A stretch of DNA of 32,000 bases, from contig NZ_JBHSTI010000002.1 in assembly GCF_042660085.1 (NCBI RefSeq), positions 360,001 through 392,000 of the forward strand, written 5' to 3'. The stretch's first letter is position 1. Every line of letters starts with the position of its first letter. The DNA is from Longivirga aurantiaca. GTDB lineage: Bacteria > Actinomycetota > Actinomycetes > S36-B12 > CAIYMF01. Position numbers and translations under genes: made by a program. Shown here one piece after another: positions 20,201 to 28,075 of the stretch. The notes beneath the pieces are model-generated. The model worked only from the letters and a program-made list of their open reading frames with translations, searched no databases and had not been told where the DNA came from.

Positions 20201-20252
20201 CGATTTGGTAGTGGAAAGTCGCGGCAGGGCGCGACTTTCCACTACCAAGTCG
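20201..20252. repeat. long perfect hairpin (TTGGTAGTGGAAAGTCGCG-GCAGGG-CGCGACTTTCCACTACCAA), left copy
   Basis: Read directly: 19-bp perfect stem at 20205-20248, extendable to about 23 bp with one G-T pair. Confidence 0.9.
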
Positions 20253-20339
20253 GGGTGCGGCCGGATTCGCCTGTGGTTGCTGTGGATATCGCCTGTCGGT
20301 GGTCGGTGCATTGTCGGAGGTGGTCGGCATGATGGGGTC

Positions 20340-21815
20340 ATGTCGCAGGCCACCATCGTCGATCCGGCGGTGGAGCTCGCGCGCCTGGTCGCGGGTGCGC
20401 GGGGCCTGCTTGCGGAGGCGTCGGCGCTGGCCGGTTCCGGTGCCGTGTCTGAGGTGCAGCTGGCGGGTCTGCCGGAGCTGACGGCGGAGCTGTTCGCGGC
20501 CCGGGACGCCGCCCACGCCCTGGGCGTGGTTGCGGTCGATCGCCTGGACGCGTCGGGGGTGCTGGCGTCGGCGGGGTTCGGGTCGACGACGGCGTTCCTG
20601 ACCCAGCGCACCGGCATGGCCCCCGGCAGGGCCAGCAGCGTCGTCTCCGGCGCCCGCACGCTGCGGTCGTACGCCGCGACGCGCGTCGCGCTGGTCGCGG
20701 GCCGGGTCACCCCGGACCTGGCCGCTGCCCTGGTGCGCGGGTCGGAGGCTGCGATCGCGGACAGGACCGCCGACGACCGGGTGCAGTGGCGGGCGTTCTG
20801 CGAGGACTACCTCCTCCCCATCGCCGAGCAGGGCTCGGTCGAGGAGGTCGTGGGCGCTGCCGCGGTCCTCAAGGAGATCCTGGATCCGGAGGCCGCGGCC
20901 CGCCGGGCCGAGGAGGCGATGGCTCAGCAGTTCTTGACGGTGACCCGGGTGGGGGACCAGTTCGTGATCAAGGGTGCGTTGACCCTGGAGGACGGCGCGG
21001 CGCTCAAGGTGCTGCTGGACCGGATGCGCGACGCGAAGTTCCGGTCGGGCTCGCTCACCCCTGAGGAGCAGCCCACCGGGGATGCCGCGGTCGACGAGCG
21101 CCGGCGCCGGATCGCCGCGGCGCACCAGGACGCCCTGTCGTTGAACCACCTCGTGCAGCTGTGGCTGACCAGCGGCATGGTCGGCCGCGCCCACGGGGTC
21201 CGACCGCACGTCACCATCACCACGTCGGTCGACGACCTCGACGCGGGGTTCCCGGGCGAGATGACCGTCCCCGGGATGTCGTCCCCGGTGCTGGTCAACG
21301 CCGAGACGGTGAAGCGGATGCTGTGCGACGCGTCGGTGACCGAGCTCGGCGTCATCGGGTCCGTCGCGGACCGGCACGCGCACCACCACGACGGCGTCCC
21401 CTGCCACGGCGCTGCCCACCGGGGGCGACACGGGCACGTGCACGGCGTCGGCGGCTGCGAGCTCAACGCGGACTCGGCGCGGTTGCTGCGCCGCCGCCAC
21501 CACGTCTGGGACGAGGGACGCCGGTACCGCACCGTGCCGCCCCGCCTGCGTCGGGCGCTGGACCTGCGGGACCGGCACTGCGCCTTCCCCGGCTGCCGGA
21601 TCGCGGTCGGGTGGTGCGAGGCCCACCACATCACCGAGTGGGAGCACGGCGGCGCGACCGACCTCGACAACCTCACGCTGCTATGCGCGAAGCACCACCA
21701 CGCGGTGCACGAGGGCGGCTGGACCATCGTGAAGAACCCCGGCATCGATCCGGGCTGCCCGACCTGGCTCACCGTCGAACCGCCCGACCCCAGCCCCGTC
21801 CGAACCCGGCCCTGA
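20340..21815 (+). CDS. DUF222 + HNH endonuclease protein (REP13E12-type family)
   Basis: ATG at 20340 is in frame (GTG at 20337 is possible); 491 aa. The C-terminus has RHCAFPGC...CEAHHITEWEHGGATDLDNLTLLCAKHHHAVH, the HNH motif. The N-terminal alpha-helical region is typical of DUF222. Confidence 0.88.
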   Translation: MSQATIVDPAVELARLVAGARGLLAEASALAGSGAVSEVQLAGLPELTAELFAARDAAHALGVVAVDRLDASGVLASAGFGSTTAFLTQRTGMAPGRASSVVSGARTLRSYAATRVALVAGRVTPDLAAALVRGSEAAIADRTADDRVQWRAFCEDYLLPIAEQGSVEEVVGAAAVLKEILDPEAAARRAEEAMAQQFLTVTRVGDQFVIKGALTLEDGAALKVLLDRMRDAKFRSGSLTPEEQPTGDAAVDERRRRIAAAHQDALSLNHLVQLWLTSGMVGRAHGVRPHVTITTSVDDLDAGFPGEMTVPGMSSPVLVNAETVKRMLCDASVTELGVIGSVADRHAHHHDGVPCHGAAHRGRHGHVHGVGGCELNADSARLLRRRHHVWDEGRRYRTVPPRLRRALDLRDRHCAFPGCRIAVGWCEAHHITEWEHGGATDLDNLTLLCAKHHHAVHEGGWTIVKNPGIDPGCPTWLTVEPPDPSPVRTRP

Positions 21816-22388: not shown

Positions 22389-23537
22389 TCAGGCGAGTCG
22401 GGCCAGCAGGAGCTTGGCGACGATCTCGGTCATGATCTCGGTCGTGCCGCCGCCGATGCCGAGGATCCGGCTGTCGCGGTAGTGGCGCTCGACCTCGCAC
22501 TCGCGCATGTAGCCCATGCCGCCGTGCAGCTGCACGGCCGCGTCGACCACGCGGTCGCAGGCGGCGACTGCGGTGTTCTTGGCCATCGCGACGCGCATGA
22601 GGACGTCGTCGCCGGCGAGCCAGTCGTCGGTGACGGCACGGGTGTACGTGCGGGCGACGTCGACGTCGCGGGCCATCTCGGCCAGCCGGTGCGCCACCAC
22701 CTGTCGGCTGGCGAGGGGACGGCCGAAGGTTTCCCGCTGGCGCGTCCACGCGATGCTGAGGTCGAGGCAGCGCTGCGCGGTGGCGTACGCCTGGACGGCG
22801 ATCGACAGCCGCTCGGCCGCGAACTGGCCGACGATCTGCAGGAAGCCGGTGCCTTCCGCGCCGACGAGGTTGGCGCGCGGCACGCGCACCTCGTCGAAGG
22901 TGATCCCGGCGGTGTCCGAGCAGAGCCACCCCATCTTCGCGAGGGGTGCCGACACGGTGACGCCGGGTGCGGAGCTGTCGATCACGAGCAGGGAGATCCC
23001 GCCGGCGCCGTCACCGCCCGTGCGGACCGCGGTCGTGATGAAGTCCGCGCGGGTGCCGGACGTGATGTAGAGCTTCGCGCCGCTCACGACGTAGTCGTCG
23101 CCGTCGACGACTGCCCGCGTGCGGATGCCGGCCACGTCGGAGCCGCCGTCCGGCTCCGTGATCGCCAGCGACACGATGCGCTCGCCGGCGAGCACCGGGC
23201 GCGCCACGCGGTCGACCAACGCCGGGTCGCCCGCGGTCACGAGGTGCGGGAGCCCGATGCCGTGGGTGAACAGCGCGGCCACGAGGCCGGACGACGCGCC
23301 CGACAGGATCAGCTCCTCGGCCACGACGAACGCGTCGATCGGCGTGCCGCCGCTGCCACCGACCGACTCCGGGAACCCGATGCCGAGCAGCCCCGCCTCG
23401 GCGGTCTTCCGGTGCAGCTCGCGCGGCACCGATCCGGCCGCCTCCCACTCCGCGAGGTGCGGCAGCACCTCGCGCTCGCTGAAGCGCCGTACCGTCTCGC
23501 GCAGGAGCCGTCGTTCCTCGGTGTCCCAGCTGTCCAT
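22389..23537 (-). CDS. acyl-CoA dehydrogenase
   Basis: 382 aa. Contains LAITEPDGGSDVAG, YITSG, QVVAHRLAEM and QLHGGMGYMRECEVERHYRDSRILGIGGGTTEI. Confidence 0.92.
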   Translation of the reverse strand: MDSWDTEERRLLRETVRRFSEREVLPHLAEWEAAGSVPRELHRKTAEAGLLGIGFPESVGGSGGTPIDAFVVAEELILSGASSGLVAALFTHGIGLPHLVTAGDPALVDRVARPVLAGERIVSLAITEPDGGSDVAGIRTRAVVDGDDYVVSGAKLYITSGTRADFITTAVRTGGDGAGGISLLVIDSSAPGVTVSAPLAKMGWLCSDTAGITFDEVRVPRANLVGAEGTGFLQIVGQFAAERLSIAVQAYATAQRCLDLSIAWTRQRETFGRPLASRQVVAHRLAEMARDVDVARTYTRAVTDDWLAGDDVLMRVAMAKNTAVAACDRVVDAAVQLHGGMGYMRECEVERHYRDSRILGIGGGTTEIMTEIVAKLLLARLA

Positions 23538-23612
23538 GGGCGGTGCCTCTCCCTCATCTGCCGAGCGGGAGGCTCACGCTAGCTGCCGTTGGGGCAGTTG
23601 ACTTCTCGGGTC

Positions 23613-24215
23613 TCAGTCGTCGAGGCCGCGGGCCACGAGCGCATCGCCCAGGGCGGTCGCCATCCGCAGCGAGCGGACGACGAGCGCGACCGTGTACGCC
23701 TGCGGCGCGAACACCACCCCGCGCGCCCGCTGGGCGTCGCGGACGTCGTACGCCGCCCCCACGACCACGGGCACCGACCGCATCCCCAGCGCGAGCATGA
23801 GGCCGACGCGGTCGGGGTCGACGCCGAGACGCCGCAACGGCCCGCACGCGGTGACCACCGCGTCGGCCATGGCGGTCGTCCGCGTCGTCAGCGTCACGAG
23901 GGCGGCGGCCAGGACGAGCACGAGCACGGTGCCGACGACGACGGCGGCACGGGACCAGCCCGCCGCCCACACCTGGAACCCGCCGATGAACAGCAGCACC
24001 CACAGCATCGGCCGCACCTGGCGCCAGACCAGCGCCAGCGGGAAGCCAGCGACCCCGTACCCGACGAGCACCACGACGCCGACGGCCGCGATCTGCCACG
24101 GCGTGTGCAGCCAGATGGTGAGGACGGAGAGCGCGAGCAGCACCAGCAGCTTCACCCCTGCGCGGGTCCGGTGCAGCACGGAGTCGCCGGGGACGTAGAG
24201 CGAGAGGTCCCTCAT
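23613..24215 (-). CDS. ECF transporter transmembrane (T) component, EcfT/BioN-like
   Basis: ATG at 24215 forms an ATGA overlap with the ecfA stop; 200 aa. Hydrophobic, with DAQRARG near the C-terminus, resembling the conserved Arg-containing EcfT coupling motif. Confidence 0.8.
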   Translation of the reverse strand: MRDLSLYVPGDSVLHRTRAGVKLLVLLALSVLTIWLHTPWQIAAVGVVVLVGYGVAGFPLALVWRQVRPMLWVLLFIGGFQVWAAGWSRAAVVVGTVLVLVLAAALVTLTTRTTAMADAVVTACGPLRRLGVDPDRVGLMLALGMRSVPVVVGAAYDVRDAQRARGVVFAPQAYTVALVVRSLRMATALGDALVARGLDD

Positions 24216-24904
24216 GCCAGGAGCCGGCGGTAGAAGTCGACCGCGGCAGCAGGGGAGCCGTCGCACACGATCCGGCCCTCGTCGAAGACCAGGACCCGGT
24301 CGTACTCCGCCAGCAGCTCGAGGTGGTGGGTCACGAGCACCACCTGCTGCGGCAGCGACTCGAGCAGGGCTCCGATGCGGTGGGCGTTGCGGAGGTCGAG
24401 CAGCGTCGTCGGCTCGTCGAGCACGAGCACCGACGGCTCGGTGACGAGCACCGAGCAGAGGGCGAGCAGCTGCTTCTCGCCGCCCGAGAGCGAGTGGGCG
24501 GGGGAGTCTGCGAGCTCGGCGAGCCCGAAGTCGCCCAGAGCCTTCGTGACCAGCGCGGCCACCTCGGCGGCTGAGTGCCCGCGCCGCTTCAGCCCGAAGG
24601 CGACGTCCTCCTGCACGGTCGGCATCACGATCTGCGCGTCCGGATCGGTGAACACGAAGCCCACCCGCCGGCGGACCTGCTTGCCGTCCTTGTTCGCATC
24701 CAGCCCGTCGACGGTCACGCTGCCGCGGTCGGGCAGCACGAGGCCGTTGAGCAGACGCGCGAACGTCGACTTGCCCGAGCCGTTCGCGCCGATGACGCCG
24801 ATGCGCTGCTCGGCCAGGCGCACGCTGACGTCGTCGAGCACGGTCCGTCGGGCCGGGCCGGTCCCGAAGGCGTGCGTCACGCCGGTCAGCTCGATCACCG
24901 GCAT
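24212..24904 (-). CDS. ECF transporter ATPase component, EcfA/BioM-like
   Basis: The ATG at 24904 was placed by ORF-track frame arithmetic (MPVIELTGV); 230 aa. Has Walker A GANGSGKST, signature LSGGEKQ and Walker B VLVLDEP. Confidence 0.9.
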   Translation of the reverse strand: MPVIELTGVTHAFGTGPARRTVLDDVSVRLAEQRIGVIGANGSGKSTFARLLNGLVLPDRGSVTVDGLDANKDGKQVRRRVGFVFTDPDAQIVMPTVQEDVAFGLKRRGHSAAEVAALVTKALGDFGLAELADSPAHSLSGGEKQLLALCSVLVTEPSVLVLDEPTTLLDLRNAHRIGALLESLPQQVVLVTHHLELLAEYDRVLVFDEGRIVCDGSPAAAVDFYRRLLA

Positions 24905-26031
24905 CGCTCGACCACCATCGCGACACCCTGACCGCCTCCGGCCGCGATCGCGGCGAGCCCGTACCGCCCGCCGTCGCGCAGCACCAGCTGGCTGAAGAGG
25001 CGGACGACGAGCACCGCGCCGGATGCGCCCCACGGGTGCCCGAGCGCGAGCGCACCGCCCTCGGCGCAGACGCGCACCGGGTCGAGCCCGAGCGCGTCGC
25101 AGCAGGCGAGCACCTGCCCGGCGAACGCCTCGTTGATCTCGATGACGTCGAGGTCGTCGAAGCCGATGCCCGCCGCGATCACGGCACGCTCGACCGCCGG
25201 TACGAGGCCGATGCCGGGGCGTCGGGGGTCGACGCCCGCGGTCGCAGCCGCCAGCACGCGCAGGCCCGGGATCCCCAGCGCCTCATGGGTTTCCGCGTCT
25301 ACCACCGCCACCGCGGCGGCACCGTCGCTGATGCCGCACGAGTTGCCCGCCGTCACGGTACCGCCCTCGCGGAACGCGGGCCGCAGCCGGGCAAGCCGTT
25401 CGATGGTGAGCCCCTGGCGGGGGCGGTCGTCGTGCAGGACGTCGCCGACGGCGACGAGCTCTGCGTCGTACGATCCCGAGGCGATCGCCGCGGCCGCCCG
25501 GGCGTGCGACCGCGCGGCGTACTCGTCCTGACGCCCGCGGGTGATGCCGTGCTCCGCGGCGAGGAGGTCGTTCGAGACTCCCATGTCGGGGTCGAGCTCG
25601 GCGGTCGGTGCGAAGGGCGCGCGCTCGTAGCGCACAGGCTCCTCGCCCTCGTGCGGCGGCCACATCCGCCAGGGTGCCGTCGACACCGACTCGACGCCGC
25701 CTGCGAGCACCGCGCCGCGGTCGGCGCGCAGGGACGACGCCGCGACGGCGATGGCCGCGAGCCCGCTCGCGCACTGGCGGTCGACCGTGAGCGCAGGCAC
25801 CGAGACCTCGAAGCCGGCGGCCAGCGTCGCCACGCGGGCGACGTCGCCGCCCGGGCCCATGCAGTTGCCGAGGACGACCTCGTGGGGCTCGAGCCCGTGC
25901 TCGTCCAGCATCGGGCGCAGCCCGCGGAGCACGGTCGCTCCGAGGTCGGCAGCGGTCACCTCGGCGAGGGAGCGGCCGGAGGTGCCGATCGGGGTCCGCA
26001 GCGCGCCGACGATCACCGGGTGGCCGGTCAC
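24895..26031 (-). CDS. thiolase (acetyl-CoA C-acyltransferase family)
   Basis: GTG at 26031 forms a GTGA overlap with the upstream stop; 378 aa. Contains the VDRQCASGL catalytic Cys, NEAFA, and GHPWGASGA. Confidence 0.9.
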   Translation of the reverse strand: MTGHPVIVGALRTPIGTSGRSLAEVTAADLGATVLRGLRPMLDEHGLEPHEVVLGNCMGPGGDVARVATLAAGFEVSVPALTVDRQCASGLAAIAVAASSLRADRGAVLAGGVESVSTAPWRMWPPHEGEEPVRYERAPFAPTAELDPDMGVSNDLLAAEHGITRGRQDEYAARSHARAAAAIASGSYDAELVAVGDVLHDDRPRQGLTIERLARLRPAFREGGTVTAGNSCGISDGAAAVAVVDAETHEALGIPGLRVLAAATAGVDPRRPGIGLVPAVERAVIAAGIGFDDLDVIEINEAFAGQVLACCDALGLDPVRVCAEGGALALGHPWGASGAVLVVRLFSQLVLRDGGRYGLAAIAAGGGQGVAMVVERCR

Positions 26032-27044
26032 GGCGCGACCTCCACGCCATCGCCCGCAGCGATGCGCGCTGTCACTGCTGCCCGGTCGACCTTGCCGGCC
26101 GCGGTCAGCGGGAACGGCGTGAGCACGAACCAGCGGCGCGGCCGGTGCGACGCGGCGAGCTGTGCGCGCGACGTGGTGCGCAGCGGTTCGACGTCGTCCC
26201 TGTGCTCGAGCGCGGCGGCCACGACTGCTCCCAGCCGGGGATGCGGGATCCCGACGACGGCGAGCGCCCCGGTGGCACCTGCCCGCAGGCAGCCTTCCAC
26301 GTCGGCGACGTGCACGGTCGCACCGCCGGTGAGCACCACGTCGTCGCGCCCGTGCACCTGCAGCCGTCCGTCGGCGAGGCTGCCGCGGTCGCCCACCGTC
26401 GCGAACCGGTCCGCGCCCTGCAGGAAGGGTCCGTCGCCGTCGACGTACCCCGACGAGACGTACGCCGAGCGCACCCACACCACGCCGTCACGCACCTCGA
26501 GCTCGACGCCGGGGAAGGCGGTGAGGTCGTCCTCGTGCGTGCCCCACGCGACGAACGACAGCTCGGCCGCGCCGTAGTAGTGGCTCACCCGCAGGCCGGC
26601 GGCGGATGCCCTGTCGTGCAGCGCGATGCCGAGGCGGTCGCCCGCGACGACCGCGTGGACGCCGTCGAAGCGTTCCCCGGTGTCGAGCACGTCGTGCAGC
26701 GCCGACGGGGTCAGGAACCAGTGGGTGGCCGCGTGCGGCTCGTCCACGACGTCTGCGCCCAGGAACCGCGCGTGCACCGCTGCGAACAGGTTCATCGTGC
26801 CGGTCACAGGGGCCGGGATCCAGGCGCGCGAGGTGCGCGCGAGACCGGTGAGGGACTCGACGGGCGCGAACGAGTCGACCCACGACCAGGTGCTGCGGCG
26901 CACGATCCGGGGCGTGCCCGACGTGCCCGAGGTGCGCAGGAGCACGTCGTCGCCGGCCTCGTGCGCCGTGACGAAGGCCGCGACCGGGTCGGCCTCGGCG
27001 AGGAGGTCCCGTGCGCGGTCAGGCCGTGACGTCGACGGGTTCAT
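26028..27044 (-). CDS. short-form AMP-dependent synthetase/ligase (ANL family, about 338 aa)
   Basis: The AMP-binding P-loop TSGTSGTPR is at aa 39-47. Also has YGAAE, ATVGDRG and a C-terminal AAGKVDR. Lacks the usual ~150-aa N-terminal region, as in short MenE-like ligases. Confidence 0.8.
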   Translation of the reverse strand: MNPSTSRPDRARDLLAEADPVAAFVTAHEAGDDVLLRTSGTSGTPRIVRRSTWSWVDSFAPVESLTGLARTSRAWIPAPVTGTMNLFAAVHARFLGADVVDEPHAATHWFLTPSALHDVLDTGERFDGVHAVVAGDRLGIALHDRASAAGLRVSHYYGAAELSFVAWGTHEDDLTAFPGVELEVRDGVVWVRSAYVSSGYVDGDGPFLQGADRFATVGDRGSLADGRLQVHGRDDVVLTGGATVHVADVEGCLRAGATGALAVVGIPHPRLGAVVAAALEHRDDVEPLRTTSRAQLAASHRPRRWFVLTPFPLTAAGKVDRAAVTARIAAGDGVEVAP

Positions 27045-27615
27045 CGGCTGTCCGGCGCGGCGGGAGGAGGTCGGGCAGCGCCGAGTGCACGCCGCGCGCG
27101 ACGAGCGCTGCCACCACCATCTTCACGAGGTCGCCGGGGATGTAGATGGCGAGGAGCGCCAGTGCGGCCGCCGGTGCGTTGCCGCCCAGGGTCATCAGGC
27201 TGATCCAGCCGCCCAGGTAGAGCACGAGCGAGCCCACGACGTTGAAGGGGATGCCGTAGCGCACCTGGTACGGCGCCCCGCGGCGCTCGGTCAGCAGTCC
27301 GACGACCAGGGCCGCGAACGGGAAGGCCCAGAGGAACCCGGCGTACGGCGTGGTGAACACGCCGAAGCCGCCGCGGCCTCCGGAGAGGAGGGGGAGCCCG
27401 ATCGCCACGAGGGCGAGGAACAGCGCGACCGACAGGAAGCCACGGCGCGCGCCGAGCACGGCGCCCGCGAGCACGACGCCCATCGACTGCAGCGTGATCG
27501 GGGCAGGGAACCCGGGGACGAACACTGCGGGCACCAGGCCGAGGGCTGCGATGACGCCGGCGAAGACGGCGACGAGGGCGAGGTCGCGCGCGGGGCGTCG
27601 GGCAGGAGCGGTCAC
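27019..27615 (-). CDS. bioY: biotin transporter S component BioY
   Basis: 198 aa, GTG start. Contains PITLQSMGVVLAGAVLG, GLPLLSGGRGG, YAGFLWAFPFAA and YIPGDLVKMVVAA, all characteristic of BioY. Confidence 0.88.
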   Translation of the reverse strand: MTAPARRPARDLALVAVFAGVIAALGLVPAVFVPGFPAPITLQSMGVVLAGAVLGARRGFLSVALFLALVAIGLPLLSGGRGGFGVFTTPYAGFLWAFPFAALVVGLLTERRGAPYQVRYGIPFNVVGSLVLYLGGWISLMTLGGNAPAAALALLAIYIPGDLVKMVVAALVARGVHSALPDLLPPRRTADEPVDVTA

Positions 27616-28075
27616 AGGATCCTCCGGGGCGGACGGGGTCGGGCAGAGGCAGGCTACGGCCGCCGTGATCCCCGGCGGGAGCCGCCTGCGGCTCGCCGGG
27701 TGGAGCGGTCGCTACGGAGAAGGTTCCGGGACCGGTGTCGAAGACCCGTCCCAGGTTCTCCTCAGGTGCTGCCGCCGCCCGCCGATGGGGCGACAAGGAC
27801 CGGTCTGGCCGGCCCGCATCACGGCATCGGTGCACGGAGGCACCCCGCATGACGACTCTCACCCTGGATCGCGACGAGCGTGGACGGCGCCGCGGCGATC
27901 GCCGGCCAGATGCTGGCGCTGCCCGTTGCCGACGTGGCGCTGCCGGGCGGCGGCGTCGTGAGCGCTGACGCCTGATCCCACCGCGCAGCCACGGCCGCGA
28001 CATCCTTGCCCCTCGGGTCACTGCGCCGGAGGATGAGCCTCTCCGGTCATGGCGGCCGGTGCAGGAGGCTGGGCG

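Follow-up and report, generated by a model that had tools for sequence, protein, structure and literature searches.

We examined a 32,000-nt stretch of the Longivirga aurantiaca genome (contig NZ_JBHSTI010000002.1, positions 360,001 to 392,000; hereafter the window, with positions counted from its first letter). The window has a G+C content of ~73% and contains an operon for a probable biotin transporter of the energy-coupling factor (ECF) type, within which lie genes for an acid-CoA ligase and a thiolase-like enzyme. Gene calls were based on codon-position GC, Pfam and NCBIfam searches, and direct reading of starts, stops and junctions. By codon-position GC, minus-strand coding is continuous from 27615 to 22389; six reading frames are supported, and none of the six genes contains an internal stop.

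A conserved bioY-ligase-thiolase-ecfA-ecfT unit

The first five genes, all on the minus strand, make up the unit considered here. The bioY gene (27019–27615) has a GTG start and a GGAGG ribosome-binding site and encodes the 198-residue S component of the transporter (PF02632, E 4.7e-33). It is followed by genes for a short, 338-residue ANL (adenylate-forming) acid-CoA ligase (26028–27044), with AMP-binding and AMP-binding_C matches that both fall just under the Pfam cut-offs, and for a thiolase-like enzyme of 378 residues (24895–26031; TIGR01930, E 7e-105). The transporter is completed by a 230-residue ECF ATPase (ecfA, bioM-like; 24212–24904; PF00005, E 2.3e-27) and a 200-residue T component of the CbiQ family (ecfT, bioN-like; 23613–24215; PF02361, E 6.4e-14). 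The bioY and ligase genes overlap by 26 nt, the ligase and thiolase genes by GTGA, the thiolase and ecfA genes by 10 nt, and ecfA and ecfT by ATGA; a 75-nt gap then separates ecfT from a sixth gene, encoding an acyl-CoA dehydrogenase. The operon stands alone, with a divergent fdsG/fdsB/fdsA-like operon starting at 28049 on one side and a convergent DUF222/HNH gene (20202–21815) on the other. A first-pass annotation of the window had placed the six genes and all their junctions at the same positions, and had taken the ligase and thiolase to be translationally coupled parts of a biotin ECF importer operon; both points stand, and the coupled arrangement is conserved.

A search for the ligase family in species-representative genomes found it encoded in 234 species, with carriers that include metagenome-assembled genomes of Nanopelagicales as well as Nocardioidaceae, Janibacter, Blastococcus, Geodermatophilus, Klenkia and Trujillonella. 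In all 80 ligase-bearing loci fetched for context the ligase gene is followed by the thiolase gene (cut by a contig end in three), and bioY, ecfA and ecfT adjoin the pair in nearly all of the loci that reach far enough. The gene order of the window is found in ~60 of the 80; in Geodermatophilaceae the ligase-thiolase pair converges on a bioY-ecfA-ecfT group of the opposite strand. The ligase is encoded in 19 genomes of an evenly drawn sample of 121 Nocardioidaceae, each time within ~130 nt of a BioY gene (19/19). Within the host genus, full-length ligase orthologues occur in only five of 25 genomes, four of them at the same locus; a contig end cuts the locus of the fifth (G001), where only the bioY-ligase adjacency is visible. 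Outside the genus the short ligase is ~320–345 residues long and 53–60% identical to the window protein. This length is kept throughout the family. The ligase and thiolase genes are not pseudogenes. A related arrangement is present on Azospirillum plasmids, where bioM-ecfT-bioY is followed by genes for a 495-residue ligase and a thiolase; the Azospirillum thiolases are 50–52% identical to that of the window, whereas the host's own paralogues reach only 35–39%.

The insertion of a ligase and a thiolase into a bioYMN locus thus recurs, and the arrangement is not unique to this strain: bioY-ligase-thiolase-ecfA-ecfT is one conserved unit and not a chance arrangement. Because the solitary BioY of sister species is divergent (32–39% identity to the window BioY) and has no ecfA or ecfT adjacent to it, we regard the five-gene unit as a distinct module rather than as a bioYMN operon of the genus into which genes were later inserted locally.

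The acyl-CoA dehydrogenase gene (22389–23537, minus strand; 382 residues with all three ACAD domains) is a lineage-specific, incidental neighbour and not part of the core of the module, since it is adjacent in only three species and its orthologues occur in unrelated contexts. It adjoins the operon only in L. aurantiaca (G000) and two sister species (G018 and G007). In a further sister species (G021) the operon occupies the same locus and the dehydrogenase orthologue (80% identity) is on a different contig, and two genomes without BioY or the ligase (G011 and G024) also encode orthologues (78–80%). The neighbours of orthologues elsewhere are unrelated (a TetR regulator, an esterase, a GGDEF protein). 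No hydratase or hydroxyacyl-CoA dehydrogenase is encoded at or near the locus, so that there is no beta-oxidation set, and the beta-oxidation-like module including the dehydrogenase that had been proposed for the window is not borne out. The 75-nt spacer between ecfT and the dehydrogenase gene (23538–23612, minus strand) contains two small hairpins and a GGGAGAGG ribosome-binding site. No T-tract terminator was found in it, and a terminator scan of the minus strand, uninformative at 73% GC, was empty; read-through from ecfT into the dehydrogenase gene is possible as judged from the spacer. In G021, the one sister species whose operon has no adjacent dehydrogenase, the bioY operon is closely followed by an IS110-family transposase gene (L019:12672–13802), which fits local rearrangement.

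Upstream of bioY, the −10-like hexamer TAGCCT (27651–27656, minus strand), 36–41 nt from the bioY start, is a candidate promoter element, and CGTAGCCT is conserved in the four aligned loci of the genus; a consensus scan, uninformative at 73% GC, returned no sigma-70-type site. The region upstream of 27615 had also been considered a place for BirA- or BioQ-type operators. It has no BioQ box, and the biotin ligase of the host has no DNA-binding domain. Matches to the BioQ box (TGAAC-N3-GTTCA, up to two mismatches) number six in the window, against four expected by chance, and none is near the operon. There is no clear palindrome upstream of bioY in the window, and a palindrome census of 76 bioY upstream regions recovered only the conserved coding sequence of an upstream zinc-peptidase gene and no operator.

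Further observations concern genes in and around the unit in other genomes. The zinc-peptidase gene encodes a PF04228 putative neutral zinc metallopeptidase and lies on the same strand ~25–65 nt upstream of bioY (L020:6428–7360, L024:6431–7378); by tblastn it is present upstream of bioY in 37 Nocardioidaceae loci. This could be mere synteny, or the peptidase could be a further member of the unit, for example one that releases biotin from biotinyl peptides. A small MOSC-domain gene directly follows ecfT at L053:10193–10726 and in ten other Geodermatophilaceae loci. Between thiolase and ecfA, six loci have inserted genes for GT2 glycosyltransferases, MFS transporters or a MarR regulator; considered as a clue to the pathway, these were dropped as uninformative. 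The BioY-linked thiolase gene in the Janibacter hoylei PVAS-1 draft (L072:8978–10015) is split over three reading-frame segments, by assembly error or as a pseudogene; this species has bioB. In the sister species G018, BioY of the ligase-linked subtype has two additional paralogues, with 86% and 67% identity (C1:1053667–1054089 and C1:901388–901765; L133 and L134), neither of which has a ligase gene within 1.5 kb. In G018 and G021 the region between fdsG and bioY contains a gene for an LLM/F420-type oxidoreductase-like protein together with a small gene that diverges from bioY (L017:5450–7400, L019:5510–7400). The window retains at 27700–27990 only a ~130-nt, internally deleted remnant of the small gene, which accounts for the coding-like plus-strand signal there.

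The importer and the biotin status of its hosts

The BioY protein of the window matches PF02632 with 114.5 bits (cut-off 25), and the PF00005 and PF02361 matches of the ATPase and T component, encoded in the same operon, are also above their cut-offs. The best NCBIfam models for the ATPase, TIGR04520 and TIGR04521, are matched under their cut-offs (199.7 versus 315 bits). In the host genome (completeness 96.3%) we found no bioB, bioD or bioA above the model cut-offs; the one BioF-like protein, with 380 bits, falls just short of its cut-off (426 bits). The genome has a single BioY match, a class I biotin protein ligase (lacking a helix-turn-helix or other DNA-binding domain) and two biotin-carboxylase proteins. 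A genome that needs biotin, has one BioY and has none of bioA, bioD and bioB probably belongs to a biotin auxotroph, which is indirect support for biotin as the molecule that this BioY carries.

The same pattern is seen in relatives. The bioB and BioY genes are nearly mutually exclusive, co-occurring in one of 41 relatives, and bioB is present in none of the five ligase carriers of the host genus. Among the 121 Nocardioidaceae genomes, 59 have bioB, 57 have BioY and seven have both. Six unpublished genomes (G072, G081, G084, G091, G101 and G127) contribute through the bioB count alone, except that G081 also enters the BioY count; none of the six carries the ligase. In this family bioB is missing from 18 of the 19 ligase carriers, a figure that is independent of those six genomes. 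As most carriers have no bioB, the ligase-thiolase pair is kept mostly where pimeloyl-CoA could not become biotin.

In having BioY, an ECF ATPase and a CbiQ-type T component encoded in one operon, and BioY present where bioB is absent, the locus resembles the bioMNY/bioYMN systems of Rhodobacter, Corynebacterium glutamicum and Rhizobium; the C. glutamicum bioYMN operon has been described (PMC3398298). It differs in the two translationally coupled enzyme genes between bioY and the genes for the A and T components, and in having no BioQ box.

The ligase, the thiolase-like enzyme and their relatives

The ligase motifs TSGTSGxPR, YYGAAE, TVGD, GRxDD and GKVDR (the A3 P-loop, A5, A7, A8 and the A10 Lys) show little or no variation in the family alignments. 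The PF00501 match covers only positions 170–383 and scores 28.2 bits against a cut-off of 29.9. Residues 38–336 align to residues 151–493 of the 495-residue Azospirillum counterpart; the short ligase lacks the first ~115–150 residues of its full-length relatives, and the full ~400-residue N-terminal domain is not present. The AlphaFold model (predicted local distance difference test score 87.8) has the two-domain ANL fold, and the best Foldseek matches are MenE, MatB and the amide-bond synthetase McbA (E 1e-20), with a template-modelling score of 0.75 to chain 5x8f; a 350-residue ANL-like protein, 4gs5, is also among the matches. The best NCBIfam model for the ligase is PRK07638, which we take to be the YhfT type, at 93 bits against a cut-off of 518. 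Longer relatives of the ligase (450–510 residues, 40–45% identity) also match PRK07638 best, well under the cut-off. The second-best model is PRK07824 (362 positions), at 84 bits against the MenE cut-off of 345. Short actinobacterial MenE-type o-succinylbenzoate-CoA ligases and 4gs5 are likewise ANL proteins of ~350–360 residues without the usual N-terminal subdomain; identity to the window ligase is only ~20%, and the context of the window ligase is biotin uptake, not menaquinone synthesis.

The thiolase-like enzyme aligns to chain 4n45 with 243 bits and shares with the canonical thiolases (Zoogloea ramigera PhaA, Clostridium acetobutylicum ThlA, FadA) the fold, the length class, the nucleophilic cysteine of the CxS motif (Cys87), the asparagine of NEAF (Asn300) and the histidine of GHP (His332). 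These three residues are conserved in at least 75 of 76–78 orthologue alignments. In contrast to the canonical enzymes, the BioY-linked subfamily has Ala, Ser or Gly in place of the CxG cysteine, and the VMG fingerprint of the acyl pocket reads RPG in the window thiolase, with the Pro and Gly conserved. In thiolases the CxG cysteine (Cys378 in Z. ramigera) is the proton-abstracting base (PMC3406046). The corresponding residue of the window thiolase is Ala363; among 59 alignable orthologues it is Ala in 56 and Ser in three, so that Cys is absent from all 59, and it is Gly in the Azospirillum and Rhizobium etli counterparts. The three canonical thiolase paralogues of the host genome keep MC[VI]G. 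This absence of the acid/base cysteine had no place in the first-pass account of the locus.

No replacement base for Cys378 was found among the conserved cysteines of the thiolase orthologues. Cys57, Cys310/311 and Cys322 were rejected as conserved only within Actinobacteria; Cys232 (NSCG) is present in the alphaproteobacterial counterparts as well, but also in a canonical paralogue. With the Claisen base gone in every lineage examined, ordinary thiolase chemistry is unlikely. The Cys-His-Asn set that is left corresponds to the triad used by decarboxylating condensing enzymes, FabH among them, a likeness that we use only as a lead. The best NCBIfam equivalog model for the thiolase is PRK06690, presumably the YhfS type, at 308 bits against a cut-off of 498, and no other protein of the genome matches this model as well as the bioY-linked thiolase does. 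A 4HBT_2 thioesterase gene lies upstream of the ligase gene in 14 Geodermatophilaceae loci, mostly directly adjacent, and a 4HBT_2 thioesterase with 33% identity to the Geodermatophilaceae one heads a thioesterase-ligase-thiolase trio on R. etli plasmid pC.

The closest described parallel is yhfU-yhfT-yhfS of Bacillus subtilis, in which a BioY-family gene (yhfU, a bioY paralogue) adjoins genes for an ANL ligase and a thiolase-family protein. In Staphylococcus aureus BirA with biotin represses yhfS-yhfT, and in B. subtilis it represses bioY plus the downstream yhfS/yhfT; yhfS and yhfT are called putative and given no function (PMC6391492, PMC5640590, PMC7235819, PMC11089781). The window differs from this system in several respects. 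Its enzyme pair sits between the S gene and the A and T genes, inside the transporter operon, and its ligase lacks the ~115–150 N-terminal residues. It has no BirA-type operator, and the host no BirA-type repressor, its biotin ligase being of class I. Moreover, the hosts of the module are mostly biotin auxotrophs, whereas Bacillus and Staphylococcus make biotin according to the literature. By analogy, the window module appears to be a variant of the yhfUTS theme and its enzyme pair an actinobacterial form of yhfT-yhfS.

Proposed role of the ligase-thiolase pair

The pair is conserved in the importer operon of bacteria that are mostly unable to make biotin, and for this reason it probably processes imported biotin or a close relative; we infer both the substrate and the reaction. 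Our preferred interpretation, to which we give an even chance of being correct, is that the five-gene unit combines a BioMNY-type importer with a two-enzyme, CoA-dependent module that serves in the retention, salvage or remodelling of biotin or its vitamers in auxotrophs. The importer and the enzyme pair would be made together and in fixed proportion, and the host, unable to make biotin, would import it through BioY and EcfAT. The short ligase would then adenylate the carboxyl group of the imported molecule (biotin, or a similar acid bearing a valerate-type side chain) and make the CoA thioester, from which the thiolase-like enzyme would take the acyl group onto Cys87. Because the thiolase has a Cys-His-Asn set without a Claisen base, acyl transfer, or cleavage independent of a cysteine base, seems likelier than ordinary reversible condensation. 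In lineages with a 4HBT-type thioesterase gene ahead of the ligase gene, the product may be released as the free acid. The net role would not be the supply of pimeloyl-CoA for biotin synthesis.

Several points weigh against this interpretation. The pair is absent from 38 of the 57 BioY-bearing Nocardioidaceae genomes, so that it is dispensable for uptake as such. Some carriers have bioB: one of the 19 in Nocardioidaceae (G041) and, among ten other sampled carriers outside the genus, four (G041 among them) against six without; the bioB-bearing carriers are Nocardioides sp. Soil797, N. dubius and two Janibacter species. The R. etli trio has no adjoining bioY. The sequence of the ligase does not itself name biotin as the substrate, and its nearest solved relatives, only 20–27% identical, act on o-succinylbenzoate, malonate, and fatty or aryl acids. 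No biotin-responsive operator was found in the sequence upstream of the operon. Finally, the proposed orthology to YhfT and YhfS depends on model matches that lie far below the cut-offs.

A more specific form of the proposal, which we consider unlikely, is that the short ligase is the orphan bacterial biotin-CoA ligase (EC 6.2.1.11), and that together with the thiolase, with or without the thioesterase, it forms an undescribed route that traps, stores or remodels biotin or vitamers as CoA or enzyme thioesters, common to Actinomycetota, Alphaproteobacteria and, as yhfTS, Bacillota. As of 2012, biotin-CoA synthetase counted among the orphan enzymes (PMC3377989).

Among the alternatives, the one that best survives, unlikely though we judge it, is a biotin-sparing lipid metabolism: the pair would activate short- or medium-chain fatty or keto acids and feed the acetyl-CoA and acyl-CoA pools, lessening the need for biotin-dependent carboxylases, and would be in the bioY operon only for shared regulation. 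By fold and by sequence the ligase is related to general acyl-CoA and MenE-type ligases, the dehydrogenase adjoins the operon in three species, and the R. etli trio manages without bioY, all of which would suit such a role. On the other hand, the linkage to bioY is very tight (in every carrier of the Nocardioidaceae sample), involves translational coupling and spans two phyla; the thiolase lacks the base for normal thiolase chemistry; the host genome is already equipped with several canonical thiolases and with numerous ligases; and the dehydrogenase is not conserved with the pair.

Breakdown of biotin or of an antimetabolite seems improbable to us. Here the pair would initiate beta-oxidation of the side chain of biotin, or of that of toxic analogues taken up by BioY (alpha-dehydrobiotin, for example), to give bisnorbiotin-type products, with housekeeping hydratase and dehydrogenase enzymes filling the missing steps. 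Bacterial biotin degradation does begin with the formation of biotinyl-CoA (EC 6.2.1.11), to which no gene was assigned in 2012 (PMC3377989). A shortened acid could be released by the thioesterase partner, and the first oxidation would suit the dehydrogenase encoded alongside in three species. It would make little sense, however, for auxotrophs to co-express a degradative pair with their only importer, and the Firmicutes pair is turned on by scarcity of biotin and not by its abundance (PMC6391492). The missing acid/base cysteine argues against efficient thiolysis, and the inconstant association with the dehydrogenase also speaks against this role.

Supply of a precursor, which the first-pass annotation had raised in the form of a pimelate-like or dicarboxylate substrate, is very unlikely and, for the host genome, close to refuted. 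In this view BioY or another route would import pimelate or a longer dicarboxylate of odd chain length, for instance azelate, which would be ligated to CoA and trimmed by the thiolase to pimeloyl-CoA for biotin synthesis; Rodionov et al. are said to have originally suggested such a role for yhfTS in 2002. A ligase and a thiolase are the minimum needed to enter and finish a round of beta-oxidation, some carriers, named above, have bioB, and Bacillus and Staphylococcus, which have yhfTS, make biotin according to the literature. In the host, with no bioA, bioD or bioB above cut-offs, pimeloyl-CoA would lead nowhere, and bioB is also missing from 18 of the 19 Nocardioidaceae carriers and from all five host-genus carriers; moreover, the pair is not accompanied by genes for a hydratase or dehydrogenase step, and the thiolase has no acid/base cysteine.

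The further suggestion that this BioY imports and the pair activates some other carboxylic acid, although membership of the BioY family does not prove the substrate and the ligase-linked BioY is so distant from the solitary sister BioY, is very unlikely. This BioY is the only one in a genome that has a biotin ligase and two biotin carboxylases and apparently cannot make biotin, and a biotin importer would be expected to show the near-mutual exclusion with bioB that BioY shows among relatives.

For more than 20 years the yhfT-yhfS pair has been recognized as regulated by biotin but has lacked a function; the window locus and its relatives narrow the problem. That the pair is kept mainly by bacteria unable to make biotin argues that it does not serve synthesis of the biotin ring, and the recurrence of a thioesterase as third partner points to a free-acid product. 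An open annotation problem thereby becomes a matter of a few enzyme assays and gene deletions. If the substrate proves to be biotin, the module would supply a gene for an orphan EC number and would indicate how auxotrophs hold on to a scarce vitamin.

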